NCBI GenBank assembly: GCA_964449585.1
Contig: CAYUZE010000005.1
Location: forward strand, 46,596-110,595
Source of the DNA: an uncultured Gammaproteobacteria bacterium
GTDB lineage: Bacteria; Patescibacteriota; Microgenomatia; UBA10105; UBA927
Reading direction: 5' to 3'
Length of the DNA stretch: 64,000 nt
Shown: piece after piece, positions 9,801 through 57,289 of the stretch
Layout of the letters: each line of letters starts with the position of its first letter
Position numbering within the stretch: position 1 is the stretch's first letter
The notes under the pieces: generated by a model
Database searches by the model: none
Told to the model about the DNA's origin: nothing
Seen by the model: the letters and a program-made list of their open reading frames with translations, nothing else
Position numbers and translations under genes: made by a program

Positions 9801-9876
9801 TGAGTGCGGGAAGGTTTTATATCAAAATATATCAAAGTGATATTAGATATACCGAGGGGCAACCGGCGAATTTACC

Positions 9877-10266
9877 TTAAAGCATTGCTCTCATAAGCAT
9901 GCCTACGGAACGCACAAAGTCATCTAACTTCTCATAGTCTTTATTTACCACCTTCGTAATACCCCTATCTCGAAGTTGCTGATTGTAAGCAGGCATAGAG
10001 GATATTCCAATCACCTTATCTGTCCCAATTTTCTCTAGGTTAATTGTGTGAAAGGAGCCTCCCGCTTTGCAATCGCGGTCTAGGAGCACGATGTCCCAAG
10101 TAATTGATTCGGTTCTATTTACATAGTCTTCTACTTGGGAGTATTCGGAGAGGACGGTAGTAGCTATCTCCACATTACATTCATCCTCAAGAGTACGGAG
10201 AGCCTCCATAAGTTTCGAGAGCGTAGCTAAGTCATCTTCAAGGATAAGTACCCGACAGGTTTTCAT
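9877..10266 (-). CDS. Stand-alone response-regulator receiver (REC/CheY-like) domain protein
   Basis: N-terminal VLILEDD acidic pocket and central IVLLDRDC phospho-acceptor-like Asp in a 129-aa protein with no output domain. Confidence 0.5.
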   Translation of the reverse strand: MKTCRVLILEDDLATLSKLMEALRTLEDECNVEIATTVLSEYSQVEDYVNRTESITWDIVLLDRDCKAGGSFHTINLEKIGTDKVIGISSMPAYNQQLRDRGITKVVNKDYEKLDDFVRSVGMLMRAML

Positions 10267-10671
10267 ATGCCTAGATTGAAGTATAAACGATTCTTAATAG
10301 ATGGGGGGCTGGACAGGAAAACTATACACATTGATAGCCCGATGAAATGAGTAACCGCGTGCCTTGGTTTGTAAAAATTATAAGGTATTTGAAAAGTGAC
10401 ACATTTCAACTATAGAGCGTCCTGATGCACTAAATACCAGTTGACAGGGTGACAATAGAAATTATTCAATGGGCTTGTCTTAAGGGACTACCGTTAGGGC
10501 TTAGAAGACGTTAAAGAAACGAAGCGATAACGGCGACCGAAGCAAAGCAAACGAAACCTATACAGATAAACAGTTAAGACACCTCAGCCGCACCGGCTAG
10601 GAAAATCTGGCAGGGAGAGTGAAGCCAAGCGAGGGAGATGTATTTCTGAGTTATGGAGGGAGAAAAAAACG

Positions 10672-10863
10672 ATGAAAAAGTTACAAAGTGACACTGTAAG
10701 CACAAAACAGGTGCGAATTGACGCTGAGTGGGTAAATGCTCTGGCTTATCTCCGAGCAGACCTCCACGTGTCAATGAAGAGCCTTGTAGAGGAAGCTCTA
10801 AGCAAGTGCTATGCATTGAATTCAGAAGGGAAACCTTATCGAATTGAGAAAGCGTCAGATTAA
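10672..10863 (+). CDS. Small ribbon-helix-helix-like protein (possible CopG/antitoxin-like)
   Basis: 63 aa; VRIDAEWVNALAYL resembles an RHH beta-strand/helix start; weak. Confidence 0.3.
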   Translation: MKKLQSDTVSTKQVRIDAEWVNALAYLRADLHVSMKSLVEEALSKCYALNSEGKPYRIEKASD

Positions 10864-11140
10864 AGCTTGGTATCGAACATTTATCATTTCCATTTTCATT
10901 ATGAACATCAATAGCTATTTAACCGTCATAAGCGGAAGAACCAAATTGACCCTGTATGAATTCGATACGTATAAAAAAACGACGCAGTCCGACGATTGTA
11001 TTTCGCTATATGGTGGATGCGGGTGGAGCCACGCCTATCAAACGGATGTATAGCCGTATATTTGAGTTAGCGTATGAGCGAGTTATAGAGCGTAGGAATA
11101 AGATAAGTACTTAACAAAGTATAATGGAATAAGGGAAAAT

Positions 11141-12799
11141 ATGGGTGAACCATTCCAACCAACTAGTAGTGATAAAGTTCCACGAAAAGCAGCAATATAC
11201 GCTCGTGTTTCTACTGAAAATCAGGAGAAGCAACAAACAATAGACTCTCAGATTGATGAGGTCAAAAGGCGAATAGAGGTAGATGGAAACACCTTGACCG
11301 AGGAGAATATCTATATTGATGAAGGCTGGTCAGGGATGCTTTTGGCAAGACCTGCGTTAGACCAGTTACGTGATGCCGTTTCATCTAAGCGGTTCGATAT
11401 GGTGTACGTATATGACCTCGGGAGGCTATCGAGAGATTTTACCAACCAGCTTGTATTAATTAAGGAGATTGAAGATTCGGGGGTAAAGGTTGTTTCTTTG
11501 CATGACATTAACCCAGAAAACGATGAGCAAGGGTTTATAAGAAATATCTTGGGTAGCTTCCATGAGTATGAAAGAGTCAAAATCGCCGACCGCATGCGCA
11601 GAGGCAAACTTTATAAAGCAAGAAATGGCAACATTATCAACGGAAATGCGATTTATGGCTACTCGTATATTAAGAAAAGCGGCGATATACCCGCATCATG
11701 GGTAATAAACGAGCAAGAGGCAAAAGTCGTAAGGATGATATGGCAATGGGTAGGGGAGGAAGGAGAGTCAATTCGGGGTGTTATAAAAAGGCTTTACGAT
11801 ATGGGTATTACTCCTCGCAAACAAAAACGTCCCATTTGGACAAAGGGACCAATTGTACGAATACTCCAATGTAATACATATGTGACCGGCAAAGCCCATT
11901 ACAACAAGTCAGAAGCTACTATCGCAAAACGTCCTAGGAACAGCGACCGATACAAAAAGGTTAAGAGAACGAGTAGAAAAGTGCGACCGGTAGAAGAATG
12001 GATACCATTCGACGTTCCGATAATCATTCAGGATTTGGCGTTATATGAAAAAGTACAGAAAATATTCGAGCTTAACAAGAAATATGCAAATAAGAAAAGT
12101 AAGGGAAAGTATTTATTTACGGGAAGGATATTTTGCCAATGCGGAAGCCGTATGAACGGTGACGGGTGCAATAAATATGGTCACTTCTACTACCGGTGTA
12201 CGAGTAGAATCCACAAATTTCCTCTAGATACGTCTTGTAAGGCTGGTGGTGTGAATGCGAAGCTATTGGATACGTTGCTTTGGAATGCTCTTAAGAAACA
12301 AATTAGCGATAGCGTGCTTCTCCGGCAATATGCGGAGGAATGGCTTGAATCAAAGCAAAAGCATCTCGATATCTCAGAGGAGGTTGAGAGATTGCAAAGC
12401 ACGCTTAACAGCCTTTCTCAGGAAGAAGAGAGATATGCAAAGGCATATGGGGCAGGTTCACTAGATTTAAGTTTATTCACTAACCTTATTAAAAATATAC
12501 GAAGCCAAAAGACCGATGTTCAGGAAAAGATGTGTGGCATCATGGCTACCCATACGAGCGACATATCTCCAGTGGAAGTTGATGAGCTCGTAAAAGAATC
12601 GTTGGAAGTAATTGAAAAGTTAGATTGGGATAACAAAATTGCCACAGTTCGCGATATAATAGAGCGCGTTATTGTCAGAGAACAAACTGGAGTAGAGGTG
12701 TTCGTACATTTACCTATGCCATCTACCCAAAAGTTGGATTATGAACTTGAAAGTAGGCATCGTCGGGCTTCCCAATGCAGGGAAATCCACCTTATTTAA
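11141..12799 (+). CDS. Large serine recombinase (resolvase N-terminal domain plus recombinase domain plus Zn-ribbon/coiled-coil)
   Basis: AIYARVSTENQ catalytic Ser motif, then YDLGRLSRDF; Cys cluster CQCGSRMNGDGC...YYRC typical of large serine integrases; 552 aa. Confidence 0.85.
   Translation: MGEPFQPTSSDKVPRKAAIYARVSTENQEKQQTIDSQIDEVKRRIEVDGNTLTEENIYIDEGWSGMLLARPALDQLRDAVSSKRFDMVYVYDLGRLSRDFTNQLVLIKEIEDSGVKVVSLHDINPENDEQGFIRNILGSFHEYERVKIADRMRRGKLYKARNGNIINGNAIYGYSYIKKSGDIPASWVINEQEAKVVRMIWQWVGEEGESIRGVIKRLYDMGITPRKQKRPIWTKGPIVRILQCNTYVTGKAHYNKSEATIAKRPRNSDRYKKVKRTSRKVRPVEEWIPFDVPIIIQDLALYEKVQKIFELNKKYANKKSKGKYLFTGRIFCQCGSRMNGDGCNKYGHFYYRCTSRIHKFPLDTSCKAGGVNAKLLDTLLWNALKKQISDSVLLRQYAEEWLESKQKHLDISEEVERLQSTLNSLSQEEERYAKAYGAGSLDLSLFTNLIKNIRSQKTDVQEKMCGIMATHTSDISPVEVDELVKESLEVIEKLDWDNKIATVRDIIERVIVREQTGVEVFVHLPMPSTQKLDYELESRHRRASQCREIHLI
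12741..12757 (+). repeat. attR-like direct repeat ATGAACTTGAAAGTAGG (current ychF start)
   Basis: Partner of the 6606-6622 repeat. Confidence 0.6.
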
Positions 12800-13817
12800 C
12801 GCGCTATTGAAAAAACAGGTGGCGTTTGCCGCAAACTACCCGTTTGCTACCATTGAGCCAAACATCGGGGTCGTGCCCGTACCTGATGAACGGTTGGCAA
12901 AAATTGCCGAAATCACTAAAGAAGAAGATCACCTGGAAAAACTGCCGCCGCTCCGTCCCGCCACCGTGGAGTTTGTTGACATCGCTGGACTGGTGAAGGG
13001 CGCAAGTGAAGGCGAAGGATTGGGAAACAAATTTTTAGCCCACATTCGTGAGGTGAATATTATCTGTAACGTCCTCCGGTTTTTTCCCGACTCGAACATT
13101 GTCCATACCGAAGGGGGAATAGATGCCGAGCGTGACCGTACCATCGTCGAAACGGAGCTCGTGCTCGCCGACCTGCAAACACTTGCCAAACAGCAGGAGC
13201 CCAAAATGAATGCAACGAAGGAAGATCGGGCGCGGTATGAACTCGTTAAACGACTTAAAACCGCCATGGATGCGGGCAAGCGCGCGGGAGAAATCCTTAC
13301 CGATCCCGACGAACGGGAGCTTATCCGCCCGCTCCAACTCTTAACAATGAAGCCGATCGTCTACGTGGGCAACGTCTCCGAATCACAGCTTGCCGTTCCG
13401 CCGCAAACGAATCTTCATCCGATGGTGTTTATATCCGCGCAAACCGAATCTGAACTTGCCGCCATGACGCCCGAGGAACAAAAAGATTATCTTGCATCGC
13501 TCGGAGTTGCCGCGTCGGGACTTGATCTGCTAATCCGCACCGCATACGAAACACTGGGACTTATATCTTTTCTCACGACGGGAGAACTGGAAAGTCGTGC
13601 CTGGACGATCGAAAAGGGCATGAAGGCACCGGCAGCCGCCGGGGTGATTCACACGGATTTCGAAAAGAAGTTTATTAAAGCGGATACCGTGTCGTATGCC
13701 GACTTTGTTGCCTGCGGCGGTTGGAAAAAGGCACGGGAAGCCGGAAAAGCCCGCAGTGAGGGTAAAGAGTACGAGATGCAGGACGGTGACATCGTGGAGT
13801 TTAAAATCGGCAGTTAA
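12741..13817 (+). CDS. ychF: Ribosome-binding ATPase YchF (Obg-like GTPase family)
   Basis: MNLKVGIVGLPNAGKSTLFNAL G1 motif, TGS C-terminal domain; 358 aa. Confidence 0.9.
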   Translation: MNLKVGIVGLPNAGKSTLFNALLKKQVAFAANYPFATIEPNIGVVPVPDERLAKIAEITKEEDHLEKLPPLRPATVEFVDIAGLVKGASEGEGLGNKFLAHIREVNIICNVLRFFPDSNIVHTEGGIDAERDRTIVETELVLADLQTLAKQQEPKMNATKEDRARYELVKRLKTAMDAGKRAGEILTDPDERELIRPLQLLTMKPIVYVGNVSESQLAVPPQTNLHPMVFISAQTESELAAMTPEEQKDYLASLGVAASGLDLLIRTAYETLGLISFLTTGELESRAWTIEKGMKAPAAAGVIHTDFEKKFIKADTVSYADFVACGGWKKAREAGKARSEGKEYEMQDGDIVEFKIGS

Positions 13818-36365: not shown

Positions 36366-37073
36366 TTACTCATCACCATCGGAATCTTTGGTCTCGCCGT
36401 CCGTATCATTCGCTTCGTCACCGTGTTCGCTCCGGGAGAAGGGGACATACAGCGCCGTTGTTGAAAATGACGGCTGATTGGCAAATCGCTTGCCGCGACC
36501 TGTTTCCCTGATGAACAGCGTCAGCGTGTTTTTTCCGACGGATTTCACCAGCGCCTGATAGGTATTGCCGACCCCTAAAAATTTGATGAGCCGAAACGAC
36601 AAATCATCGGGTAATGCCGCAAGATACGTGCCTTGATCGTTTCGCGCTTCCACCACGTGATTTTTAGCCTTAAGCTCAATTTCTTCGCCAGGGGATACGG
36701 TCATAAGTACTTGAAGCGGTGCGGTATTGACGCATTCCACAATTTTCGTTTTCCCCGGTTCTTCAAGAAACGACATGGGCGTAACGAATGATTTTTTGGT
36801 TTTTACGAGGTCTTTCTGGCGGACGACACCGAGTTTCTTGAGGTTTTTTGCGGCGATCTGGTTATACGTATCAAGTTTTGTTACTTTAAGAAATGTTTTT
36901 TTGGCTTCCGCAATCTCACCGCACTGAAGATACGCAAAGCCGAGACGGTTAAGATAACTGATGTTATTTTTGTTCGTTTTGAGAAGACCAAGATTGATGC
37001 GGATCGCCTCTTTCCAATCCTGGGCAAGCGCGGCCGCAATGGCTGAAGCGTCGGAAATTGTCGAGTCGCTCAT
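36366..37073 (-). CDS. TPR-like repeat protein, hypothetical
   Basis: Helical repeat region (YLNRLGFAYLQCGEIAEAKKTFLKVTKLD) and acidic C-terminus. Confidence 0.35.
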   Translation of the reverse strand: MSDSTISDASAIAAALAQDWKEAIRINLGLLKTNKNNISYLNRLGFAYLQCGEIAEAKKTFLKVTKLDTYNQIAAKNLKKLGVVRQKDLVKTKKSFVTPMSFLEEPGKTKIVECVNTAPLQVLMTVSPGEEIELKAKNHVVEARNDQGTYLAALPDDLSFRLIKFLGVGNTYQALVKSVGKNTLTLFIRETGRGKRFANQPSFSTTALYVPFSRSEHGDEANDTDGETKDSDGDE

Positions 37074-37138
37074 GGTGGACAAGAGTATCAGAGTGCCGTA
37101 AGATATGTCAATACAGAACATGCCCCGGACGCACAGGT

Positions 37139-37858
37139 ATGAGCGGACATTCCAAATGGAGTAAGGTCAAACATCAGAAGGCAACGACGGATGCCGTCAA
37201 AAGCAGGGCGTTTACGAAAGCCTCCCGTGCGATCACCGTCGCCGTCCGTGAAGGCGGGGGCATTGCCGACCCGGATAAAAATTTTCATTTACGATTGGCG
37301 ATCGAACTTGCCCGCTCGGTAAACATGCCGAAAGACACCATTGAACGTGCAATAGAAAAGGGAGTCGGCGGCGGGGGAGCAGCATTGGAAAATTTGGTCT
37401 ATGAAGGATACGGTCCCGGAGGGGTGGCGTATGTGGTGGAGGCGACTACCGATAATCATCAGCGAACGGGTTCGGAGGTGAAGCATCAATTTGACCGGTT
37501 CGGCGGAACGCTTGCAACTCCCGGTGCGGTACTGTACCAGTTTCAAAAAAGCGGGGTTCTGCTCATCGCAAAAGCGGGTAATACGTTTGATTCGTTGCTC
37601 GATCGGGTGATTGCCGCAGGTGCCGATGATCTTGTCGAACAGGAAGACGTCTTCGAGGTATATACGGCAAGTACCATGCTTGATAAGGTTAAGAAACAAT
37701 TGGAGTCGGAAGGGAGTATCATTGAGTCGGCGGAGTTTATTATGCGGTCGACGATGCAGGTTGCGGTGAGTGACGCCATACGGGAGAAAAATGAAGCGCT
37801 TACGGAAGCGCTTGAATCGCTCGAAGACGTCCAGCATATCTATACAACCATGGAGTAA
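37139..37858 (+). CDS. yebC: YebC/PmpR-family transcriptional regulator
   Basis: MSGHSKWSKVKHQKA N-terminal signature. Confidence 0.85.
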   Translation: MSGHSKWSKVKHQKATTDAVKSRAFTKASRAITVAVREGGGIADPDKNFHLRLAIELARSVNMPKDTIERAIEKGVGGGGAALENLVYEGYGPGGVAYVVEATTDNHQRTGSEVKHQFDRFGGTLATPGAVLYQFQKSGVLLIAKAGNTFDSLLDRVIAAGADDLVEQEDVFEVYTASTMLDKVKKQLESEGSIIESAEFIMRSTMQVAVSDAIREKNEALTEALESLEDVQHIYTTME

Positions 37859-37860
37859 TC

Positions 37861-38709
37861 ATGAAACGGTTTATCACCTCCATCAGCGAAACGATCATGA
37901 AACGCTATAAGCGGTGGGAGCGTACCCAACCGTTCAGCAAGCGGCAACAGTTTGTCGGCATTACGGGTATTTTGACGATTCTTCTGATGTTGACACAGCT
38001 TATGCCGTTGGATTTCCGTTATCCCATGGTCGGGGCACTGTTTGTCATCAGCTATCTGCTTTGCGCGTTTGCGCTCCGTGATGATCTGCGAGGAGCAGAG
38101 TGGGGAACACTCCTGATCCTCCCTTCGTTTTTCACCGCAGCGGTGGCGGTGTTTTACTTTCTCCTTCCCACTCGCTGGTTGACCCGGCTACCCATTGCCG
38201 TATTGTATGCGGTGGGTATGTATGCGTTGCTTCTCACGGAAAACATTTATAATGTCGCTGCGGCAAGGACAATCGCCCTACTGCGGGCGGCACACTCGGT
38301 CGGCTTCCTTCTTACACTGGCGACGTATTTTCTTTTGGTGCAAACGGTACTTGCGTATCGGTTTTATGGATGGGTAAATGCGCCGCTTATCGGACTGGTT
38401 ACGTATCCGTTGACGCTGCAAATTCTTTGGGCGATAAATCTGGAGCCTGCGGTGGGGAAGAGGGTACGGGAACTTACCCGTATTATCACCCTTGTTCTGT
38501 TTGAACTTGCCTGGATATGTTCATTGCTTCCCGTACGGACGACATTACTGGCGCTTTTCTTGACGGCCTGTTTTTACGGGCTGGCGGGGATGGGGCAACA
38601 GTATTTGGCGGATCGGCTCTATAAGCGCACCGTGTGGGAGTTCTTCGGGGTGGTCGCCATAGTCGGTCTTATTTTGCTTGTCACGTTAAATTGGCGGACC
38701 GCGGTATAA
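37861..38709 (+). CDS. Polytopic membrane protein, hypothetical
   Basis: 282 aa, about 7 hydrophobic segments. Confidence 0.4.
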   Translation: MKRFITSISETIMKRYKRWERTQPFSKRQQFVGITGILTILLMLTQLMPLDFRYPMVGALFVISYLLCAFALRDDLRGAEWGTLLILPSFFTAAVAVFYFLLPTRWLTRLPIAVLYAVGMYALLLTENIYNVAAARTIALLRAAHSVGFLLTLATYFLLVQTVLAYRFYGWVNAPLIGLVTYPLTLQILWAINLEPAVGKRVRELTRIITLVLFELAWICSLLPVRTTLLALFLTACFYGLAGMGQQYLADRLYKRTVWEFFGVVAIVGLILLVTLNWRTAV

Positions 38710-38766
38710 ATGCGCAACGTTTGGATTATTTCTTCGGTACCGTCGTTACCTCATTGGCACAAAGGT

Positions 38767-38819
38767 GGGAGAGTGGGAGAGTGATATAGTCTGATATAGT
38801 TGATATAGTTTGATATGGG
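38767..38819. repeat. Iteron-like tandem repeats: GGGAGAGT x2 then GATATAGT x3 plus GATATGGG at 9-10-nt periodicity
   Basis: Read directly from the sequence: gggagagtgggagagtgatatagtctgatatagttgatatagtttgatatggg. Confidence 0.7.
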
Positions 38820-39084
38820 TAGGGAAAACTATAGGGTACAATGTGGATAATTAATTTCACGGGGTATACGCACTGTTTTCACGATGCCCTGATAGCCTCG
38901 ATTTAGCCTCAACAGAATGGAAAACTATAGGGTAGAGCTGTGCCATTCTGTTCCGGGGAATGCCAGGCATATCGTGTGCTCCCTTCCTCTCCCTTGAGTA
39001 CACAAAGTGTGCGATAAAACATCGATTTGGATTGTTGTGACGCTCTAAATGCGACTATCTACCGCGTTACCGGAGGAGCGAAAG

Positions 39085-39425
39085 TAGCCTCAAAAAAGTG
39101 AGTTTAGCGCGTATTGATGGGCTAAATAAAACCGAAAACGTGAAGTGCTAGCAGGAGTCACCCGTGGAGCGCTAAGCTATGTGTTTTTATTTGCCTGCTC
39201 ACGAAAGAATGAGAATTGTAAGGCTAAAGTCGCATATATGGAGCGTCAATACGCTCTGTTCTATCATTGCTGGGAAGTTATTTTAATCGAGTATTTAGCC
39301 TCAGTAAATATCGTTTGGAGCGTATTAATGCGCTAAATAGCGACATGTCATGGGTACCGGATGCGCATAGGGCAGGGAGTTTAGCCTCAAAATATTGCAT
39401 TTGGAGCGTATTAATGCGCTAAATA
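39085..39425. repeat. Three copies of a roughly 45-nt element (TATTTAGCCTCA-N-TTGGAGCGTATTAATGCGCTAAATA) with terminal inverted repeat TATTTAGC/GCTAAATA and an internal palindrome
   Basis: Copies at about 39085-39128 (degenerate), 39296-39339 and 39382-39425; the last two are nearly identical over about 25 nt. Confidence 0.65.
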
Positions 39426-39984
39426 ATTTTCACAATAAAAAACCCGAACGCCCATTTTTTGCCTGTTTATTCGCCATACAATCGGGAAGAAATGTTCAAT
39501 CGATCCGCAGCGCATGGAATAGCCACGACGCGTATGCGGAAGAGAGGTGGCTTAGGACCTATCTCCCTCGGTGTGGGAGTGCTGATAAAAACTGCCCCTG
39601 GCTCTGGGGCAATTTTGGCGGTTTCCCTGCCCGGGGGAAGAACTTGCTATGTAGTCGCACAATAATACTTTTGCGACGTTACGAAAAAGACCCTGCCCGG
39701 AGAAGTGGTTTATCCGACCGTATTGTCGTTCCATTGTTTTTGTCATTTGGTTTGTACAAACGGATGCACATTGCGGCAAATATTTCGTATATATTCCCCG
39801 GTTTGTCCGACGGCTATTTTTTGTCCGATATTTTTTACGGTCGTCGGCGCCATCGTCCGTATTTTGCCCGGTTATCCCGTCAAAACGCGCTAACCTGTTT
39901 TCTGTCGGATACATGAGATGATCGCTCATACGTCTTTCGTAAATCAGGGGCCTTCTAGGTCATTACAGGGGCTCAAATTTGAGG

Positions 39985-40683
39985 CTATTTTTGATGAAAC
40001 CGATAGGTGCCAAAAACCCTGGTTTTCGACGGGTGTGCACCCGCGTTTGTGGTAATAAGCGATACTTCATTTGCAGTAATGTTCCCAAACGGCATGTCGG
40101 TATATGCGGTAAGTTGTTCAAGAAATTTCTGTTGCGGCGTATGGGTATATCGGCAGATGGTGATATTGGCAAATACCATTTCATCGGTAAAATAGGTTTT
40201 GTCATCGGGCACGCCGGTTACGACAAGTTGGTGCCGCAAGGTGCGTACGAACGCATCATACCGAGGCTCGATGAGTGCGATAACGGAAATACTCGTCGGC
40301 ATGCTGAGTATGCCGAACAAGGGAAAAGAAAACGGTTCATAAGCCGGTACGACGGCGCCAATTGCCGTATCTGCCTTGGTGATATCAGCCGAAGTAAAAT
40401 GCGGCGGATTGTTGATCACGCGAACGTTTTGAATTGTCAAATGCAGACTGTCGCGGTTGTAATAGTAAAAATTCGGCTCAATGGTTTGGAGCGTTTTGAT
40501 AATCTTTTCGTAGATAACAGTTGCAACATCTTTGCCGACGAACGATACTGCCGTCAGACATAACTGCGGATCGTTCGCATAATCCGTTTGCATCGGAACG
40601 ATGGTTGAGGAAGTGCTTCCGCGGGAAAGGGATGACTCCATTTGGCGCATCAAAACAAGCTGTCTTTTCTGGTATGAGGTCAT
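39985..40683 (-). CDS. Hypothetical protein, possibly 2H-phosphoesterase (LigT-like) with degenerate second HxT motif
   Basis: Single HLTI motif (SLHLTIQNV); second expected HxT/S replaced by NITI; weak assignment. Confidence 0.3.
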   Translation of the reverse strand: MTSYQKRQLVLMRQMESSLSRGSTSSTIVPMQTDYANDPQLCLTAVSFVGKDVATVIYEKIIKTLQTIEPNFYYYNRDSLHLTIQNVRVINNPPHFTSADITKADTAIGAVVPAYEPFSFPLFGILSMPTSISVIALIEPRYDAFVRTLRHQLVVTGVPDDKTYFTDEMVFANITICRYTHTPQQKFLEQLTAYTDMPFGNITANEVSLITTNAGAHPSKTRVFGTYRFHQK

Positions 40684-40744
40684 GAAAATATTCTACCATA
40701 TTGACATGACTCTGATGTCGTACAATTATAGATTGTAACGACGT

Positions 40745-41698
40745 ATGGATATTGATGCGCTTATTAAAGACTTTCTGGAATACCTAGAAATTGAGCGAAA
40801 TGTTTCGCGACTTACCATTCGCAACTATTCGCATTATTTGGGGCGTTTTTTTCACTTTTTGACCGGTCCCCGCGACCCCTCCTCCCCTCCCCTGTCCGTG
40901 AAAATCGTGAAAATTTCGGAGATCAATCCGGAAAATATTCGGCAATACCGTTTGTATTTGGCGCGATTTGTCGATGAAAAAGGCATGAGTCTCAAACGCG
41001 TCACGCAAAATTATCACCTCATTGCATTACGCAGTTTCCTCAAGTATCTGGCAAAACGCGATATTGCTACCGTCTCGCCGGATAAAATCGACCTTCCGAA
41101 GGCGGAAAGTCGTTCTATCAAATTTTTGGAACACAACGACATGGAGCGTCTCCTCAATATGCCCGATATGAATACCAAAGAAGGAGTGCGGGACAAAGCG
41201 ATGCTTGAAGTGCTTTTTTCGACGGGGCTCCGCGTCTCCGAATTGGTGAGTCTCAACCGTGATCAGATCAATCTTGATCGACGTGAATTTAGCGTCATCG
41301 GAAAAGGTAGACGCACGCGCATCGTCTTTTTGTCGGAACGGGCGGCAGAATGGTTACGCAAATATCTTGCTACCCGCGAAGACGATCTTCGGCCGGTCTT
41401 TATCCGGTATAGCGGCAAGACGCCCGACGAACACGATACAACGGGAGAATCGGTGCGGCTAACCTCCCGTTCCGTACAACGATGCGTCGAAAAATACGTC
41501 AAGAAAGCAAAGCTGCTGGTCAAAATTACCCCGCACGGACTGCGGCATACGTTTGCCACCGATTTGTTGGGCAACGGCGCCGATCTCCGGGCGATCCAGG
41601 AGTTATTGGGGCATAAAAACGTCTCCACTACCCAAATCTATACGCATATCACCAATCCGCAGCTGAAGGAAATTCACGACAAATTTCATAGCAAATGA
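40745..41698 (+). CDS. xerC: Tyrosine site-specific recombinase, XerC/XerD-like
   Basis: N-terminal SAM-like core-binding domain; catalytic box HGLRHTFAT...LLGHKNVSTTQIYTH with catalytic Tyr. Confidence 0.85.
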   Translation: MDIDALIKDFLEYLEIERNVSRLTIRNYSHYLGRFFHFLTGPRDPSSPPLSVKIVKISEINPENIRQYRLYLARFVDEKGMSLKRVTQNYHLIALRSFLKYLAKRDIATVSPDKIDLPKAESRSIKFLEHNDMERLLNMPDMNTKEGVRDKAMLEVLFSTGLRVSELVSLNRDQINLDRREFSVIGKGRRTRIVFLSERAAEWLRKYLATREDDLRPVFIRYSGKTPDEHDTTGESVRLTSRSVQRCVEKYVKKAKLLVKITPHGLRHTFATDLLGNGADLRAIQELLGHKNVSTTQIYTHITNPQLKEIHDKFHSK

Positions 41699-47417: not shown

Positions 47418-49940
47418 TTATTTCGTAAGGCATGTTGCCGCGGCAATCGTGTCTGATTTATCCGCAAACCGCATCAAGATAACGCCGCTGGTTGCCCGGG
47501 AAAGTTGCGGAATGGATTTCATCGGCAGCTTTACCACCTGTCCTTTAGTGGAAGTCAGAATGACCTCTTCGCAATCCGCCGGCACCAGTTGGCTTACGGC
47601 GATTTTCCCCGTTTTGTCTTTAATTTCCGCGACTTTTACTCCCTGTCCTCCCCGTTTCTGTTTGGGGAATCCTGATACGGCGGTCTTTTTGCCCAATCCC
47701 TTTTCCATGACCGTCAAAAAGTCTGCTTTTTTGGTTTCATCGTTAATGACTTCCATGGCGACCACGTAGTCGCCCGGTTTGGCAAGAATGCCCCGAACCC
47801 CCATGGTGTCACGACCTGTGTGGCGGACTTCACTTTCACTGAAACGGATTGATTTTCCTTCGTGGGTAACGAGCAATACGTCATCGTCGCCGCTCGTCAG
47901 TTTTGCCCAGATAAGCTCATCGCCCGCTTCGAGTTTGATCGCTAAAAGCCCGTTTCTGCGGATATTTTCATATTCCGAAAGTTTGGTTTTTTTAACGACG
48001 CCCTTCTTGGTGGCCATTAAGATGTAGTTAATGCCCTTTTCTTTTTGTTCCGTTCGTTTCAGGCTATAGGTAAGCATCGAGGTTACCTTCTCGCTACTTT
48101 CGATGTTGATAAGGTTAACAACCGCCTGTCCTTTGGATTGGCGGCTTGCTTCCGGGATATCCCACACGCGCACTTGATATACTTTCCCTTTCTCGGTGAA
48201 AAAGAGCATATTGTCATGCGTTTGTGCGGCAACCAGCCGGTCAATGGCATCTTCTTCTTTGGTCGTCATGCCGATCACTCCCTTACCTCCCCGTTCCTGG
48301 AGCTTGAAGGTGGTTCGTGGCACGCGTTTGATGTAGCCGGTCTCGGTCATGGTAATGATGGTTTCCTCATTGGCGATAAGCTGTTCGTCGGAGAGTTCAC
48401 CGACTTTACTCTTATACACGCGGGTCTTTCGGTTATCGCCGTATTTTTCTTTGAGCTTTGTGAGTTCTTCCTTGATGACCTTAAGTACTTTTTCCGGGTG
48501 GGCAAGTAAATCTTCAAGGTATGCGATCGTTTCGCGAATCATGGCGAGCTCGTCTTCGATCTTCTGGCGCTCCAAAGCGGCGAGTTTCCGTAGCTGCATG
48601 TCGAGGATTGCCGTTGCCTGAATTTCGGAAAGCTTAAAACGAGCCATCAGTTTTGCCTTGGCATCGTCGGCATCTTTGGCTTTTTTGATGATCGCGATTA
48701 CTTCATCAATGTGATCGACCGCAATTTTGAGTCCTTCGAGAATATGTTCTCTGGCCTTTGCTTCCTTGAGTTCATATTCACTTCTTCGATAAATGACGTC
48801 ATGGCGGTGTTTCAGATACTCTTCGAGTATTTCGCGAAGGGTCAACGTTCGTGGGGTACCGTCCACCAGGGCTACCACGTTCATCGGGAAGGTCGATTGC
48901 AGTTCGGTATATTTATACAGATTGTTTAAGACTTTGTTGGGTTGGGCATCGCGCTTGAGTTCCACGACCACGCGAATGCCGCGTCGGTCGGATTCGTCAC
49001 GAAGATCGGATATGCCTTCCAGACGTTTGTCCTTTACGAGATCGGCGATTTTTGCCACCAGGTTTGCCTTGTTGACCTGGTACGGCAACTCGGTGATGGC
49101 GATCATGCTTTTCCCGTTACCGATTTCCTCGATCTCGGCCTTACCGCGCATGACGATCTTGCCTTTGCCGGTCGAATAGGCGTTTCTGATTTCATTGATG
49201 TCATAAATCGCTCCCGCCGTCGGAAAATCGGGTCCCTGGACAAAATTCATCAGATCCTCGAGCGTGACGTCAAAGGTCATACCGAATTTTTTCGATTCTC
49301 CTTCTTCGGTGACTACCGCGGTCGCCTTCTTATCAATAGTGGCTTTGCCGATCATGAAGATGATGGCATCCACAAGCTCCGTGAGATTGTGCGGCGGGAT
49401 TTTGGTTGCCATACCGACGGCGATACCTTCACTTCCCATAAGCAGCAGATTCGGGAGTTTCGCGGGAAGATACACCGGTTCCGGGATCGAGCCGTCAAAG
49501 TTCGGGATGAAATTGACGGTTTCCTTTTCGATATCCAAAAGCATCTCATCGGCGATTGAATCCAACCGGCATTCGGTGTACCGCATGGCGGCGGCGGGAT
49601 CGCCGTCAATGGATCCGAAGTTGCCCTGACCGTCCACGAGCGTATACCGCATCGAGAAATCCTGTGCCAAGCGAACAAGCGCCTCATAGACGGATGAATC
49701 GCCGTGCGGATGATATTTACCCAACACGTCTCCTACCACCGTTGCACTTTTTTTGTATTTGCTGCTGTGGTGGAGTCCTGCCTGATGCATGGCGTAGAGA
49801 ATTCTCCGGTGCACGGGCTTTAATCCGTCGCGCACATCGGGAAGCGCGCGGGCGACGATAACACTCATCGCATAGTCCATATAGGACTTCTGCATTTCGG
49901 TGACTATTTCGCTGGGTTGAATTTTTCCGATGTGAGCCAT
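47418..49940 (-). CDS. gyrA: DNA gyrase subunit A
   Basis: 840 aa; AMRYTE catalytic-Tyr region, GyrA-box-containing C-terminal beta-pinwheel repeats. Confidence 0.95.
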
Positions 49941-49943
49941 AGG

Positions 49944-50462
49944 TTATTTGTGTGCAATACCGTCGGTAATTTCCTTTTGTGCCACTTCCTTCCCTTTCCA
50001 TTCCTTGAGTTTCACCCATTTACCGGGTTCGAGTTCTTTGTAGTGTTCAAAGAAATGTTTAATCTTCGCTTTTACGGGTTCGGGAATATCGGAAACATCT
50101 TTCATCGTGCCGTAGAACGGATCGGATTTTTCCGAAGGAACCGCAACAACCTTTGCGTCAACTCCCGATTCATCCTCCATCTCAAGCAGGCCGATGGGGG
50201 TGACATTTACCATGACGCCGGGGTGTAACGGTTGACTGCAGAGCACCATGACATCCACGGGATCACCGTCGCCCGACTTTGTGTTCGGGACAAATCCGTA
50301 GTTTGCCGGATACCCCATGGTGGTGCGGACGAAACGATCCACCATAATGACTTCGGCTTCCTTGTCCATTTCATACTTCACCATGCATCCTTCGGGGATT
50401 TCGATGATGACGTTTATATCTTCGGGCGGGTTTTTTCCTGGTTTGATTGCTGATAGGTTCAT
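49944..50462 (-). CDS. ppa: Inorganic pyrophosphatase
   Basis: Family I PPase motifs ([17 protein letters not shown]). Confidence 0.9.
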
Positions 50463-50483
50463 AATGCCTCCTTTGATAAATAA

Positions 50484-52406
<1,923 letters not shown>

Positions 52407-52468
52407 TTACTGCCTTCTCAAGAAAAAAGAGAGCGACATACACGACGCTCAAAAATCATTGTACCCGA

Positions 52469-53182
52469 TCATATTTTGGTTGTCCAGCGAGTTGTTGGAT
52501 TGTTTTCTTCATCGGTGATAAGGGCGTGTTCGAGGGCAAGAAGCGGGTGAATATTCCCCTGTATCCGTTGCTTTGCCCGCATGAGACGATGGATCAATCG
52601 GGTGGTGAAAAGTACTTTTTTGTCCACGGTTATTGTCGAAACATGGGTGCGAAGGGATTGTGCAAGAACCACCGTCGCGGCATCGATCCAGGCGACCATT
52701 TCTTCCTTTGATTTGCCGATCGTCTCCGCAAACGCAATGCGTTCTCCGACCGGGGTAGTCGCAAGTTCGGTGAGAAACTCGGTCATTTTACCCGAGCCGT
52801 CGCCTACGGGTGCCGTTGATTTCCCCTTAACGGTGATCTTGGTGCATCGGGATACCACCGTCGGAAGCAAAGTCGCATCATTGGGAGCCGAAAGAATAAG
52901 AATTGCATGCGCGGGCGGTTCCTCAAGTGTTTTTAACAGTGCCTGCTGTGCTTCTACGGTGAGCAGTTCCGCTTGCGGAATAATACCCGCGCTCATTGTG
53001 CCGTGTGTCGGGCGGAGTGCAATTGTCTTGATAAAGGCACGGATTTGTTCAATCCCGATCGTCGGTCCCGTGAGTTCGGGTGAGGTGGCATCAAACGCGT
53101 GTATGTCGAGCATTGCGGTACGTCGTGCAATTTCTTTGGTTCGTTCCGGCAGGTCACCGCCGGTAATAAGATAGGCATGCAT
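52469..53182 (-). CDS. holB: DNA polymerase III delta-prime subunit (short form)
   Basis: LLKTLEEPP and SRC motifs; N-terminus uncertain (track ORF extends to 53227; internal Met MHAYLITGG chosen). Confidence 0.6.
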   Translation of the reverse strand: MHAYLITGGDLPERTKEIARRTAMLDIHAFDATSPELTGPTIGIEQIRAFIKTIALRPTHGTMSAGIIPQAELLTVEAQQALLKTLEEPPAHAILILSAPNDATLLPTVVSRCTKITVKGKSTAPVGDGSGKMTEFLTELATTPVGERIAFAETIGKSKEEMVAWIDAATVVLAQSLRTHVSTITVDKKVLFTTRLIHRLMRAKQRIQGNIHPLLALEHALITDEENNPTTRWTTKI

Positions 53183-53286
53183 AGATTTTCGTGTTTGTAC
53201 TATAGTACTTTGGCTTTCCCCTTGCAAAGCCGTTTGTTACCATGAATAATGGATATACCGACGTCTGTTGGTACGTTGTGGTCGTA

Positions 53287-55013
53287 CGGTAATCGCTATG
53301 CCTGCCCAAGATATCGTTTCCATTCTTATTGCCGAAAATAAATTATCCGCCGATAAGGGCGATAAAATCCGCACCGAATCGCTTAATTCCGGCATCCCCG
53401 TCGAAGACCTGCTGGTGGGAAAATACGGCATATCTCATGATGACTATTCGCGTGCCAAAGCAGAGTCACTGGGCATTCCGTTTGTGACCGTTTCCGGTCG
53501 TGCCATTTCTCCCGACGTCATCAATTTTATTCCCGAGCCGGTAGCCAGACGATATACGTTGGTGCCCTTTCAAATCGATCCCGACGAACGTGCCGCGCTT
53601 TCGGTTGCGATGGTCGACCCCCTGGACTTTCAGGTAGTCGAGTTTTTGGAAAAGAAATCGGGACATTCGATCCGTCCCTACATGGGACTGAAGGACGATA
53701 TTCTCTCGGCAATTGATGAACTCTACACCCAAAACCTGGGGGCGGATGTTACCGCGGCACTTGAGGAATCATCCCCCGCGATTAAAACATATGAGGCCGG
53801 GCGACTCGGGGAAGTGATTCGCGAGGCTCCGATTGCGCAAATCGTATCGGCGATTCTTGAGCAGGCAATTCGTATCAGAGCATCCGACGTCCATATCGAA
53901 CCGCAGATTGCGGAAACACGGGTGCGGTATCGGGTTGACGGTATATTGCAGGAGCGACTGGTGCTTCCCCGAAGGCTTCAGGAAGCCGTTATTTCCCGTA
54001 TCAAAATTCTTGCGGATTTGAAAATCGATGAAAAGCGGGTGCCGCAGGACGGTCGGTTCAATTTTAAAATGGGAGAAAGCGAAGTGGACCTTCGTGTCTC
54101 TACCCTGCCTACCGTACACGGCGAAAAGGTCGTCATGCGGTTGCTCAAAAAATCGGGAGGAATTCCCACGCTTAATGAGTTGGGGCTCCGCGGGTTGGCG
54201 CTGAAGCACCTTGAGACGGCAATCCGAAGACCGCACGGCGTCATTCTGGTAACCGGTCCTACGGGAAGCGGTAAAACGACCACCCTGTATTCGGTGCTTG
54301 CGATATTAAACAATGCAAAAGTAAATATCATGACCCTTGAAGATCCGGTCGAGTATGAGATCGGTGGCGTCAATCAGGTGCAGATTAATCCGGCGGCTGG
54401 CTTGACGTTTGCTACCGGTCTTCGCAGTTTCCTTCGTCAGGACCCCAACATTATTCTTGTCGGAGAAATTCGCGATCAGGAAACGGCGGAACTGGCGATT
54501 CAGGCTGCCCTTACGGGTCATTTGGTCTTTTCCACGTTACACACCAACAACGCGGCGGGGGCAATTCCGCGGTTGATTGATTTGGGGGCGGAACCCTTCC
54601 TTGTTGCTTCAGCGCTTAACGCGGTGGTAGGACAACGTATTGCGCGAAGACTCTGTCCGACCTGTAAGGAAGAATATGTGCCCGAAGAACCGGTGTTGGT
54701 GGATTTGCGTCGTGTTGTGGGGACGCTTTGGCCCCAGGATAAACCGATGGTGCTGTATCGCGGGAAAGGAACCGTGGACGGCAAGCAATGTGAAAGTTGC
54801 GGCGGTTCGGGCTATCTGGGGCGACTCGGGGTGTTTGAAGTATTTCCGATCACCGATGCCATAAGCAAATTAACGCTTACCCGGGCACCCATGAGTGAGA
54901 TTGAAAAACAGGCGATTGCCGAGGGAATGATTACTATGAAGCAGGACGGTTATTTGAAGGCGCTTGAAGGAGTGACGACGATCGAAGAAGTGCTTCGCGT
55001 CGCCCAAGACTAA
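53287..55013 (+). CDS. pilB: Type IV pilus assembly ATPase PilB (GspE family)
   Basis: N-terminal GSPII domain, Walker A GPTGSGKTTT, Asp box, His box, tetra-Cys motif CPTCK...CESCGGSGY. Confidence 0.85.
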
Positions 55014-55018
55014 CGACT

Positions 55019-56071
55019 ATGGACATGCAGCAAATGTTTGCCGAAGCGGCAAGAAAAGAAGCATCCGACATCCATTATATCGTGGGATTTCCTCCCATGC
55101 TTCGGGTCAACGGGGTGCTCCTTCCCGTTGAAGGCACGAGTATCCTGACCGATGAGGATGCCAGAAGGCTTTTGTATTCCACCTTCACCGACGACCAAAA
55201 AGAAATATTTGAAACAAACAAGGAAATTGACTATTCATTAGCCACGCCGGTCGGCCGGTTTCGGGTGAATGTCTACGTACAGAAAAATACCATTGCGGGA
55301 GCATTCCGGTTAATTCCCCAAAAAATTAAAACGATCGACGAATTAGGGCTTCCCAATATCTGCCACCAGTTTGTGAAACTCAGGCAGGGTTTGGTGCTGG
55401 TAACGGGTCCGACGGGTCACGGCAAATCCACCACGCTGGCCTCCATGATCAATATGATCAATATGAACAAAGGGACGCATATCATTACGATCGAAGATCC
55501 GATCGAGTACGTGTACCCTTTCGCCCAATCGATCGTATCCCAACGGGAAATGCACAGCGATACGCACTCATGGAATGTGGCGCTCAGGAGCGTGCTCCGT
55601 GAAGATCCCGATGTTGTCTTAATCGGCGAAATGCGTGATTTTGAGACGATCCAATCGGCGATTACGATTGCGGAAACGGGTCATTTGGTATTTGCGACCC
55701 TCCACACCAATTCCGCCGCACAAACGATTGACCGTATTGTTGACGTGTTCCCGGAAAACCAGCAAACGCAAATCCGGTTGCAGCTATCCAACGTACTTGA
55801 GGGAGTTTTGTCGCTCCGGCTTGTACCCGCTGTGGCGGGCGGACGCCTCCCCGTATCGGAAATCCTTACGGCAACTCCCGCGGTGCGTACGCTGATCCGC
55901 GAAGGAAAGACCCATCAGATCGATAACATTATTCAGACGAGTGCCGAATACGGTATGATGACTCTTGAAACATCCCTTGCAACATTGGTAAAGGCAGGCA
56001 GCATTAGTCTTGAGGTTGCCAACTCCTATGCGCTTCGCCCGGAGGAACTGGGAAGATTGTTGCAAAAATAA
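55019..56071 (+). CDS. pilT: Type IV pilus retraction ATPase PilT
   Basis: Walker A GPTGHGKSTT, no N-terminal GSPII domain, no Zn tetra-Cys, about 350 aa. Confidence 0.85.
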   Translation: MDMQQMFAEAARKEASDIHYIVGFPPMLRVNGVLLPVEGTSILTDEDARRLLYSTFTDDQKEIFETNKEIDYSLATPVGRFRVNVYVQKNTIAGAFRLIPQKIKTIDELGLPNICHQFVKLRQGLVLVTGPTGHGKSTTLASMINMINMNKGTHIITIEDPIEYVYPFAQSIVSQREMHSDTHSWNVALRSVLREDPDVVLIGEMRDFETIQSAITIAETGHLVFATLHTNSAAQTIDRIVDVFPENQQTQIRLQLSNVLEGVLSLRLVPAVAGGRLPVSEILTATPAVRTLIREGKTHQIDNIIQTSAEYGMMTLETSLATLVKAGSISLEVANSYALRPEELGRLLQK

Positions 56072-56080
56072 TAAAACGCT

Positions 56081-57289
56081 ATGGCATACTTTTCCTACAA
56101 GGCGCGCGATCTCCGCGGCAAATCAGCGACCGGTTTTGTGGAAGCGCCCACAAAAGAGGCGGCAACCCGTCTTCTTCATGACAAACAATTGTTTGTCATA
56201 AATCTTACCGAATCACGCAGGCAGGAACAGGGAATCGGCTCCGTAAAGCTGAGAAGAGTGGGGTTTGGTGAAATCGTCAATTTCACCCGCCAGCTTGCCA
56301 CCATGGTGGTTGCCGGCTTATCCCTCCCTGAGGCGCTTTCAATTCTTCGTGCCCAGACACCCAACCCTGCATTCGTCACGGTATTAAACGAAATCGAACA
56401 CCAGATCATCAGCGGCGGCAATCTGGGTGACGCGCTTGCCAAATATCCCCAACACTTCTCCGCCATCTATATCGCCCTTGTTCGGGCGGGAGAATCCTCC
56501 GGTCAACTCGATCAGGTATTGGCGCGGCTTGCCGACAGCATGGAATCCCAGCGGGATTTCCGCAGTAAGGTATCGGGTGCAATGATTTATCCCGTCATTA
56601 TCATGGTCGGTATGGGCATCGTGGTGATGATTATGATGACCGTTGTTATCCCGAAGCTGACCGAACTTTATAATGATTTCGGCGTCGACTTGCCGTTTGC
56701 AACGCAGCTGTTGATTTCCATATCGCAATTTTTCGTTCACTATTGGTGGCTTATGCTTGCGGCGGGGTTCGGTGGATTCTACGGATTTATGAAATGGAAG
56801 GCAACGAAAGTGGGTCAGTTGGTGGTAGACACGATTTTGCTCAGTATTCCCCTCTTCGGAGAATTGCAGAAGAAAATTATTCTCGTTGAATTTACCCGGA
56901 CGCTATCCATGTTGATAAGCTCCGGTATTCGGCTGCTTGATGCGCTCACCATATTGAAAGACGCGCTGGACAACGTGCTCTTTCGGAACGCGATTGTCGA
57001 AATCTCCAAAAAAGTTGAGCGCGGGTTCCCTCTGGGAGATACCTTTGCCCAATATCCGGTATTCCCGCCGATCGTATCGCAAATGATGAAAGTGGGAGAA
57101 GAAACCGGAAAACTTGACGACACGCTGCTTAAGTTGTCCAAGTATTTTGCGTCCGAATCGGAAAATCTCGTGAAAGGGCTTACGACTGCGATTGAACCTA
57201 TCATCATGGTGGTATTGGGAGTCGGTGTCGGATTTATCGTTATCGCGGTTATCACTCCGATTTACAACCTTACCTCTCAATTCAAATAA
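56081..57289 (+). CDS. pilC: Type IV pilus platform protein PilC (GspF family)
   Basis: Duplicated T2SSF domains, 3 TM helices, 402 aa. Confidence 0.85.
   Translation: MAYFSYKARDLRGKSATGFVEAPTKEAATRLLHDKQLFVINLTESRRQEQGIGSVKLRRVGFGEIVNFTRQLATMVVAGLSLPEALSILRAQTPNPAFVTVLNEIEHQIISGGNLGDALAKYPQHFSAIYIALVRAGESSGQLDQVLARLADSMESQRDFRSKVSGAMIYPVIIMVGMGIVVMIMMTVVIPKLTELYNDFGVDLPFATQLLISISQFFVHYWWLMLAAGFGGFYGFMKWKATKVGQLVVDTILLSIPLFGELQKKIILVEFTRTLSMLISSGIRLLDALTILKDALDNVLFRNAIVEISKKVERGFPLGDTFAQYPVFPPIVSQMMKVGEETGKLDDTLLKLSKYFASESENLVKGLTTAIEPIIMVVLGVGVGFIVIAVITPIYNLTSQFK

Follow-up and report, generated by a model that had tools for sequence, protein, structure and literature searches.

We analyzed a 64-kb stretch of DNA (hereafter, the window) and, within it, a repeat-dense gap of 1275 nt (38710-39984) that is located close to a gene for a Xer-family tyrosine recombinase (xer; 40745-41698, plus strand; Pfam PF00589 and PF02899). 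On the left, the gap borders its conserved neighbor, a DUF5656 gene (37861-38709, plus strand), which directly follows yebC (37058-37858; Pfam PF18900, PF01709 and PF20772 for the yebC-DUF5656 pair). On the right lies orf232 (39985-40683, minus strand), a real gene coding for a 2H-phosphoesterase-like protein of 232 aa ('2'-5' RNA ligase' according to one source), which is followed by xer. The two genes flanking the gap are convergent, and therefore, the gap cannot serve as a promoter region for either of them. The most conserved element of the gap, which was missed in the initial annotation of this region, is a 24-mer, GTCGCACAATAATACTTTTGCGAC (39654-39677, plus strand), a candidate Xer core-type (dif-like) site. 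The gap is a non-coding DNA control region that occupies the same place in more than 130 bacteria from the candidate phyla radiation (CPR) and is neither junk nor a replication origin.

The order of genes around the gap, namely, TGT, LytR_C-like, TPR, YebC, DUF5656, the gap, orf232, Xer and Ddl, is kept in 11 Gottesmanbacteria/Woesebacteria genomes. These syntenic loci were fetched by protein match to the 232-aa orf232 product and, together with the window, make up a set of 12 orthologous gaps. In the 11 other genomes, the gap is 1059-1310 bp long, and the proteins are ~50-80% identical to those of the window. Alignment of the 12 gaps reveals many invariant blocks with variable spacers between them. 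From the left to the middle of the gap, these are the TGATATAGT repeats, AAAACTATAGG, ATGTGGATAAtTAaTTTCACGG...TTTTCACA, TGAGTACAcaaaGTGTGCG and GGATTGTTnTgACGCTCTAAAT; from the middle to the right, they include three to five copies of a 46-nt unit, AAAtAACCCGAA, GTCGCACAATAATACTTTTGCGACGT, and a 3' block that ends in TTGAGGCTAAAT. The order of the blocks and the copy number of the motifs are shuffled between lineages, and the CCTATAA and AGCCTCA motifs are present in both orientations across the relatives.

In agreement with its initial description, the region is non-coding and rich in repeats, functional as opposed to random, and linked to the neighboring Xer recombinase. The observation that the gap, large as it is, harbors only junk-like open reading frames (ORFs) holds as well: the 125-aa and 173-aa ORFs have no Pfam match, and across the 12 orthologous gaps, no open frame exceeds 181 codons and none is common to the gaps. 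A real gene spanning the gap, envisaged at the time as a finding that would overturn the description, did not materialize. Downstream of the 24-mer, no conserved small ORF was detected in ~120 loci, and the 'peptide motifs' that recur there in differing frames trace to a nucleotide motif, CCCTACTATRGG.

The 24-mer and its link to xer

The 24-mer is an imperfect palindrome that consists of two inverted GTCGYAMAA arms around a 6-bp center (GTCGCACAA-TAATAC-TTTTGCGAC; 9-6-9 architecture). Together with its flanks, it can be written as (A/T)(T/A)GTCGCACAA-TAATAC-TTTTGCGACGT, where the flanks ATTAT...GT are semi-conserved. All 11 syntenic loci obtained via protein match carry the identical element, and an exact-pattern search for GWCGCACAATAATACTTTTRCGAC (window positions 39654-39677) recovered it from at least 120 metagenome contigs, with one copy per contig, including contigs as long as 790,768, 905,580 and 1,172,001 bp; in viral contigs, there were no matches. 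Complete or near-complete genomes with the locus include JAHFKK010000001.1 (1.218 Mb; locus at ~929 kb) and ERZ761596 NODE-1 (1.172 Mb). Among the loci with the exact 24-mer, DUF5656 identity drops to as low as 30%. In almost every locus with sufficient flanking sequence, the 24-mer is found 250-1430 nt downstream of the yebC-DUF5656 pair, on the same strand, and it is usually located upstream of xer, at a distance of 420-5500 nt.

The gene content of the slot between the 24-mer and xer differs by lineage (loci L024, L119, L139, L136, L067, L034, L124 and L058), and the genes in this slot are mostly on the opposite strand. Judged by eye, without a family search, this cargo includes transaldolase-like and glycosyltransferase-like proteins, several unknowns, and a recurrent protein of ~300 aa with the look of a TIM barrel. 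In the window, the slot is occupied by a piece of lineage-specific cargo, orf232, which has 88 homologues in CPR bacteria, is confined to the Gottesmanbacteria-like subset and is missing from most of the 24-mer loci.

The locus shows a single xer gene. Its product scores below the cut-off for each of the NCBIfam equivalogs, XerC (255.7/335), XerD (247.7/330) and XerA (218.4/220), and has a C-terminus, KEIHDK, at the position of the RQLHQQ sequence (RQ-QQ motif) of Escherichia coli XerD. The nearly equal scores for the three families, none of which reaches the cut-off, fit a single-recombinase system. Assignment to integrons was considered and rejected: the integron integrase models yielded 106 and 70 bits, where the cut-offs are 265 and 435, respectively, and there are no genes between the 46-nt units.

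A second, weaker palindrome, GTCGTACAA-TTATAGA-TTGTAACGAC (40717-40742, plus strand), is located between a promoter-like TTGACA (40701) and the ATG of xer. We searched the 160 nt upstream of xer in 81 distinct loci for the arm GTCGCACAAT, allowing at most one mismatch, and detected it in 70 of these, 69 in the plus orientation, compared to 0.05 expected. The arm often abuts the -35 element, TTGACA, of the xer promoter and, in 19 loci including the window, is part of a full palindrome with a variable 6-nt center. The degeneracy GTCG(C/T)A(C/A)AA is common to three independent arms, the left and the right arm of the 24-mer and the xer-proximal one, which is what recognition of double-stranded DNA by one protein predicts. 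In the window, the xer promoter-like site (40701-40744; TTGACA, 17 nt, AATTAT) overlaps the palindrome, which ends 2 nt before the ATG; this arrangement suggests autoregulation, with a leader that would be very short or absent.

We further traced two cases in which homology between strains breaks at or near the 24-mer. Over 16.6 kb, a second strain of the window's species (L002; Logan ERR15459717) differs from the window by 56 single-nucleotide polymorphisms only, all within a 1.3-kb tract (39761-41048) that extends from the right end of the gap across orf232 and through the 5' third of xer. Within genes, these substitutions fall mostly at third codon positions, as is the case in orf232. The left end of the tract lies 84 nt to the right of the 24-mer; with this border next to the 24-mer, the patch has the appearance of a segment imported by recombination. 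In the second case, L089 and L125 are ~98% identical over 280 nt through the 24-mer and diverge immediately to its right. A systematic search for strain pairs with breaks at the 24-mer encountered few close pairs and yielded one clear case, L089/L125, besides the window and L002.

Canonical bacterial dif sites are located at the replication terminus, and that of E. coli has the sequence GGTGCGCATAATGTATATTATGTTAAAT. In a hand alignment with this site, 13 of the 28 positions match, including CGCAnAA-6 bp-TTnTG. Like dif sites, the 24-mer has inverted arms, which in dif are ~11 bp long, around a center in the 6-8-bp range, and it is a conserved, non-coding element that is present in a single copy in contigs up to 1.17 Mb and identical in the 11 syntenic loci. 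The GC skew, however, sets it apart. Cumulative GC skew rises throughout the window, and the plus-strand skew at third codon positions (GC3 skew) is 0.075 for plus-strand genes and 0.093 for minus-strand genes to the left of the locus, and 0.032 and 0.106, respectively, to the right. For the related loci, the corresponding pooled values are 0.173 and 0.220 (left flank) and 0.125 and 0.144 (right flank), with positive skew on the left in 21 of 21 loci and on the right in 20 of 21. With GC3 skew positive to the left and to the right alike, the locus represents neither an origin nor a terminus. A terminal dif is marked by a switch in GC skew or in FtsK-orienting polar sequences (KOPS). Given that GC skew does not switch at the locus, we do not classify the 24-mer as a canonical dif; by analogy, it may work like the FtsK-independent Xer sites, such as archaeal XerA/dif and plasmid cer/psi. 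Literature searches on DUF5656, on dif in CPR and on the 24-mer sequence itself found nothing relevant.

Motif arrays around the 24-mer

The left part of the gap (38765-39056) begins with GTGGGAGA, repeated 2.4 times (38765-38783), and a polypurine tract, GGTGGGAGAGTGGGAGAGTG (38766-38785, plus strand); a tract of the GGGGAGAG type follows the DUF5656 stop codon in most lineages. Next to it are iterons (38782-38819, plus strand), with TGATATAGT at 38782-38790, 38792-38800 and 38801-38809 and a degenerate copy, TGATATGGG, at 38811-38819. Tandem Repeats Finder assigns the iterons a period of 10, and they resemble an extended -10 element (TGnTATAGT). Motif orientation was counted across 129 regions, with the expectation derived from background: GATATAGT occurs 106 times in the plus and twice in the minus orientation (~1.8 expected) and is preceded by T in 102 of 113 cases, which restores TGATATAGT, the extended -10-like element. 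A CTATAGG/CCTATAA motif family recurs in the relatives in both orientations. In distant lineages (L049; also L108, L084, L096 and L141), CCTATAA(T) repeats stand in for the TGATATAGT iterons or occur alongside them; in L049, there are four of these, with a spacing of 14-15 nt, ~300-350 nt upstream of the 24-mer, and in some lineages, the repeats form inverted pairs around a TTTTCAC box.

A perfect DnaA box is located at 38842-38850 on the minus strand (TTATCCACA, that is, TGTGGATAA on the plus strand), between two exact plus-strand copies of GGAAAACTATAGGGTA (38823-38838 and 38919-38934). The box is invariant in all 12 orthologous gaps and is present in 88 of the 129 regions, always in one orientation (88 against 0), where 0.9 would be expected; in 65 of 72 loci, its distance from a GATATAGT element is at most 32 nt on the upstream side and 57 nt on the downstream side. 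It is followed by two TTTCACG boxes (38854-38884, plus strand), ATTTCACGG at 38854-38862 and TTTTCACGA at 38876-38884, which are 22 nt apart and invariant in the 12 gaps. Across the 129 regions, TTTTCACG is found 117 times in the plus and four times in the minus orientation (1.8 expected), and the TTTCAC boxes are spaced 22-23 nt apart in 79 of 95 regions, with the DnaA box located before or after the pair depending on the lineage.

Further to the right, positions 38892-38952 (plus strand) harbor TAGCCTC and TTTAGCCTCA motifs and a hairpin with a 10-bp stem (38911-38952) that encloses copy 2 of AAAACTATAGGGTA. At up to one mismatch, TTTAGCCTCA occurs 13 times compared to 3.1 expected from shuffled sequences; the hairpin stem is not conserved in the orthologous gaps and is thus lineage-specific. 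The left part is completed by a polypyrimidine tract and two blocks (38979-39056, plus strand), TGAGTACACAAAGTGTGCGATAAAA (38995-39019) and GGATTGTTGTGACGCTCTAAATGCGAC (39029-39055), which are near-invariant in the 12-sequence alignment and restricted to the Gottesmanbacteria-like subset. Within this part, the extended -10-like element, triplicated here, the DnaA box and the two TTTCACG boxes, which are separated by two helical turns, make up a left module that looks like a promoter that points toward the 24-mer and would be modulated by DnaA.

The middle of the gap is occupied by three 46-nt units that start at 39083, 39294 and 39380, are 74-100% identical to each other and are each bounded by TATTTAGC and GCTAAATA. 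A unit consists of box A (TAGCCTCAAA), a 10-nt spacer and a palindromic box B (consensus TTAGMGC-N8-GCKCTAAAT). Unit 1, with TTTAGCGC-N8-GGGCTAAAT as box B, and the AAAACCGAAAA that follows it cover 39083-39138 (plus strand); unit 2 and the subsequent half-site-like AGCGACATGTC, in the place of which the relatives carry AAATTGCGACGTC, cover 39294-39349 (plus strand), and unit 3 and the conserved AAAAAACCCGAACG after it cover 39380-39451 (plus strand). A fourth, degenerate unit-like copy (39215-39257, plus strand; TAAGGCTAAAG plus GGAGCGTCAATACGCTCT, inverted-repeat pairs I3-I5 and I7) includes the GAGCGTcaatACGCTC hairpin at 39241-39256; in the relatives, the right half of this copy, ACGCTCT, is conserved, whereas the left half degenerates without compensation. 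The iteron-like tandem repeats, the DnaA box, the hairpins at 38911-38952 and 39241-39256 and the three units, all noticed in the initial annotation, were found at or near the positions reported there; the units are 46 nt long, and the degenerate fourth copy has to be added to the three.

The 22-mer of the units occurs three times, compared to 0.00 expected from shuffled sequences, and nowhere else in the window. The units are spaced by 86-211 nt, with no genes between them, and 12 or more species have them at orthologous positions, where the flanks are conserved as well. Miniature inverted-repeat elements (MITEs), to which the units had been tentatively ascribed, come in many dispersed copies with terminal inverted repeats and target-site duplications; here, the 22-mer is present at three local sites only. 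The units are lineage-specific arrays at fixed positions, not MITEs. Box B also invites comparison with the CIRCE (controlling inverted repeat of chaperone expression) operator of HrcA, TTAGCACTC-N9-GAGTGCTAA, with which it shares the outer inverted ends TTAGC...GCTAA and the behavior of a palindromic DNA operator; in contrast, the inner distance is 12 nt rather than 17 nt, the inner bases differ and box B is not upstream of chaperone genes. We do not treat this likeness as membership.

In the 129 regions, AACCCGAA was counted 64 times in the plus and twice in the minus orientation (0.7 expected); it precedes the 24-mer in the window's lineage and is located ~175-186 nt after it in others. A purine box, GGAGAAGTGG (39699-39708, plus strand), lies ~22 nt after the 24-mer and is followed by a T-rich variable stretch, with a T-run ~32-36 nt after the 24-mer, and GGAGAAGTG occurs 23 times in the plus and never in the minus orientation. 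The conserved 3' block (39916-39987, plus strand; GAGATGATC ... AATCAGGGGCCTTCTAGGTCATTACAGGGGCTCAAATTTGAGGCTA) escaped notice initially. Its terminal motif, TTGAGGCT, is flipped to AGCCTCAA in L006 and L012, and AGCCTCA overall shows 83 plus and 95 minus occurrences. The inverted TTTGAGGCTA copy reported near the end of the gap does exist but is located at 39978-39987, not at about 39969. Among the roles originally proposed for the region, an array of regulator binding sites comes closest to these observations: sequence is conserved while order and copy number are shuffled, and the palindromes show no covariation.

Possible functions of the locus

The locus is conserved and syntenic, follows a reproducible motif grammar, and is devoid of an ORF, of RNA covariation and of a skew switch. 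It is best read as an ancient conserved DNA control locus of CPR (Microgenomates-type) chromosomes, a mosaic of protein-binding motifs and variable spacers. More specifically, we tentatively favor, at somewhat short of even chances, an interpretation of the locus as a Xer core-type (dif-like) site that is flanked by protein-binding arrays and accompanied by a DnaA-box-associated promoter-like module. From the sequence, we infer that Xer is the binding protein, that recombination occurs at the site, that DnaA binds its box and that the promoter-like element is active; indirect support for the action of Xer comes from the linkage to xer, the copy of the arm at the xer promoter and the homology breaks at the site. 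Under this interpretation, the neighboring Xer would bind and recombine the 24-mer, which would function, like archaeal XerA/dif or plasmid cer/psi, as a dif-like site irrespective of where the terminus is. Xer would also bind the arm copy at its own promoter and thus regulate itself, and the three units (box A, 10 nt, box B), along with the other blocks, would be lineage-expanded sites for accessory or regulatory proteins. An extended scenario is that a DnaA-gated promoter fires across a mid-replichore, FtsK-independent Xer site, coupling replication status to Xer recombination for dimer resolution or for cargo exchange between the 24-mer and the second site; this coupling is a speculation to which we would assign a rather low probability.

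According to the literature, linkage of the site to the recombinase gene is a hallmark of single-recombinase Xer systems, and the archaeal dif has an 11-6-11 structure and is FtsK-independent (PMC5357621; PMC2958812). The sites cer of ColE1 and psi of pSC101 are Xer core sites located off the terminus that function independently of FtsK and have accessory sequences bound by other proteins (PMC5357621). The CPR locus is akin to XerS/difSL of streptococci and lactococci, XerH/difH of epsilon-proteobacteria and archaeal XerA/dif in having one Xer that cannot be assigned to XerC or XerD, and a unique, highly conserved, imperfect inverted repeat with a 6-bp center linked to xer. Unlike those modules, however, the site lies 0.4-5.5 kb from xer, with variable genes between; its linkage to yebC-DUF5656 is tighter than that to xer; it is surrounded by ~1 kb of further conserved motifs and is away from a skew switch; and the 24-mer is a candidate defined by its sequence. 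The motif arrays beside the 24-mer could play an accessory role similar to that in cer/psi. In cer/psi, the accessory regions are one-sided, span ~180 bp and are bound by PepA and ArgR or ArcA, whereas here, conserved motifs are found on both sides, at distances that vary from 130 to 890 bp, and include a DnaA box, and the locus is chromosomal, with a very wide range among CPR.

Several observations weigh against the Xer interpretation. There is no GC-skew switch at the locus, in contrast to canonical dif sites, which lie at the terminus; the DnaA box is single, with no cluster. The invariance of the 24-mer center is free of search bias solely in the 11 protein-anchored loci. A different dimeric DNA-binding protein could recognize the GTCGYAMAA arms. 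The flanks of the 24-mer display a weak excess of pairing (z = 2-3.5, in two registers), which is not predicted by a double-stranded DNA site, and a transcribed, unstructured RNA would likewise be compatible with the strict orientation of most motifs and with the promoter-like element. Finally, the breaks between strains, taken as hints of recombination, are anecdotal, coming from two pairs only.

An alternative that we regard as unlikely, but still as the strongest competitor, is a purely regulatory hub without recombination, in which an unknown dimeric transcription factor binds the GTCGYAMAA palindromes and controls both the DnaA-modulated promoter of the locus and the xer promoter, with the other motifs serving as further operators. 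In its favor, the arm abuts the -35 element of the xer promoter in many lineages; TGATATAGT is extended -10-like and close to the DnaA box in 65 of 72 loci, the palindromes behave as DNA sites, and the xer-proximal center varies freely, like an operator spacer. Yet the 6-bp center of the 24-mer is invariant, which an operator spacer does not need to be; there is no conserved downstream gene or small ORF for the hub to control, given that the cargo varies and is mostly on the opposite strand; and the hub offers no account of the breaks in homology between paired strains at the site.

Less probable still are one or more non-coding RNA genes, transcribed rightward from the TGATATAGT promoter through the 24-mer and ending near GGAGAAGTGG or the T-rich stretch, the conserved blocks being linear RNA motifs or protein sites on the RNA. 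Along with the motif orientation and the promoter-like element, this explanation accommodates the location of the locus on the inferred leading strand in 21 of 21 loci, the T-run after the 24-mer, and the weak pairing of the flanks, where the pair -1:+25 is T:G, T:A or C:G. The structural evidence, however, points the other way, and structured small RNAs, one of the roles first suggested for the repeats, are not borne out. Rfam scans of the whole window at the gathering threshold recovered tRNAs alone, and there was no family in the region at E <= 10 or in seven diverse loci at E <= 0.1; neither a tRNA nor a tmRNA was found in the region. RNAalifold, applied to 25 sequences around the 24-mer, gave five invariant pairs and no compensatory changes, and the G-to-A change observed at position 20 of the 24-mer creates a C.A mismatch on the plus strand. 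No conservation is seen for the hairpin at 38911-38952. As an RNA hairpin, box B of the 34 distinct unit copies pairs in 75.6% of the cells compared to 77.6% for shuffled partners and, in the G-U register proposed initially, in 62.6% compared to 62.2%. A helix between the polypurine (38766-85) and polypyrimidine (38979-95) tracts is compositional only (-19.8 kcal/mol for cognate and -19.6 kcal/mol for non-cognate partners, p = 0.41). In the absence of covariation, the palindromes are indicated to be DNA-level sites rather than RNA hairpins. Furthermore, block order is shuffled, AACCCGAA being found on either side of the 24-mer and the DnaA box on either side of the TTTCAC pair, and CCTATAA and AGCCTCA occur in both orientations, which is at odds with a conserved RNA.

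We consider it highly improbable that the locus is a replication-control element, be it oriC or a datA/DARS-like locus that titrates or reactivates DnaA, although the conserved perfect DnaA box (88 of the 129 regions), the iterons, the AT-rich spacers and the repeat arrays all bring such an element to mind, and CPR origins 'typically contain a small repeat array' (method paper PMC7111523; also PMC4736985). As in oriC and in iteron plasmid origins, the DnaA box and short direct repeats at helical spacing are embedded in non-coding DNA; by contrast, the locus has no skew switch, one box, no dnaA or rep nearby and no plasmid or phage similarity. In the gap, there are no further DnaA boxes at up to one mismatch beyond the perfect one, and a relaxed consensus has 2 matches in 1275 nt compared to ~2 expected; such a count is that of chance, and hence, there is no DnaA-box cluster, whereas a datA/DARS-like role requires several boxes. 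A tblastn search with a DnaA query revealed no dnaA homologue in the window or in 143 loci, the Pfam annotation of the neighbor genes includes no dnaA or rep gene, and blastn found no match of the region to plasmids or phages. Thus, the hallmarks of oriC, a cluster of DnaA boxes, a change of skew sign and adjacency to dnaA/dnaN, were each examined and found to be absent, GC3 skew being positive on both sides and cumulative skew rising through the entire window, and the proposal of a replication origin or iteron region is not supported. MITEs, decayed junk or a pseudogene, suggested by the TATTTAGC/GCTAAATA boundaries of the units and the junk-like overlapping ORFs, can be practically dismissed given that the units, within 64 kb, are confined to this locus, that their positions are orthologous and their flanks conserved across 12 or more species, that the blocks are invariant across genomes with 50%-identical proteins, and that there is no ORF, frame conservation or Pfam match.

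The CPR account for a large, uncultured share of bacterial diversity, and the maintenance of their chromosomes is barely known. The locus is a control region shared across Microgenomates-type CPR bacteria that, apparently, has not been described before, and the 24-mer is a testable target, invariant across genomes with 30-60%-identical proteins and embedded in a reproducible motif grammar. Should the 24-mer prove to be the Xer site, it would represent, to the extent covered by the searched literature, the first dif-type site put forward for CPR and, at the same time, a bacterial case of a Xer site that lies apart from the skew switch. Otherwise, the 24-mer would still be among the most conserved non-coding elements found here in these genomes. 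In either case, it can be used as a marker to find and orient the syntenic block in fragmented metagenome assemblies.

Other features of the window

A low-GC island at ~6400-13000 (GC 0.32-0.43, compared to ~0.51 elsewhere in the window) is probably an integrated mobile element. It encodes a Schlafen/AlbA_2 protein, ORFs that, by eye, resemble XRE-type helix-turn-helix and receiver-domain proteins, and a large serine recombinase (11141-12799). Four motifs of the locus recur within 1 kb of the island: TTTAGCCTCAtAATA (9515-9530, minus strand), TTGATATAtTTTGATAT (9819-9835, minus strand), GGAAAACTATA (10316-10326, plus strand) and the box-B-like TAGAGCGTCCTGATGCACTAAATA (10411-10438, plus strand). 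The sharing of motifs with the serine-recombinase island, noted initially, is thus real, but each match is short and individually non-significant (blastn-short E = 1-16). Together, the four motifs suggest that the mobile element shares host DNA-binding factors or promoter elements with the locus.

To the right of the locus, gyrA, the gene for inorganic pyrophosphatase, gyrB and a DNA polymerase III delta-prime-like gene occupy 47418-53227 on the minus strand, the inferred lagging strand. They are followed by a type IV pilus cluster (53268-57289, plus strand) with two T2SSE ATPases and one T2SSF protein; from 55 kb onward, per-gene GC3 skew drops to ~0. At the left end of the window (3122-5267, minus strand), a homologue of the RuBisCO large subunit (3122-4366) adjoins an IF-2B-family protein (4374-5267), a pairing typical of the CPR/archaeal nucleotide-salvage (AMP) pathway.

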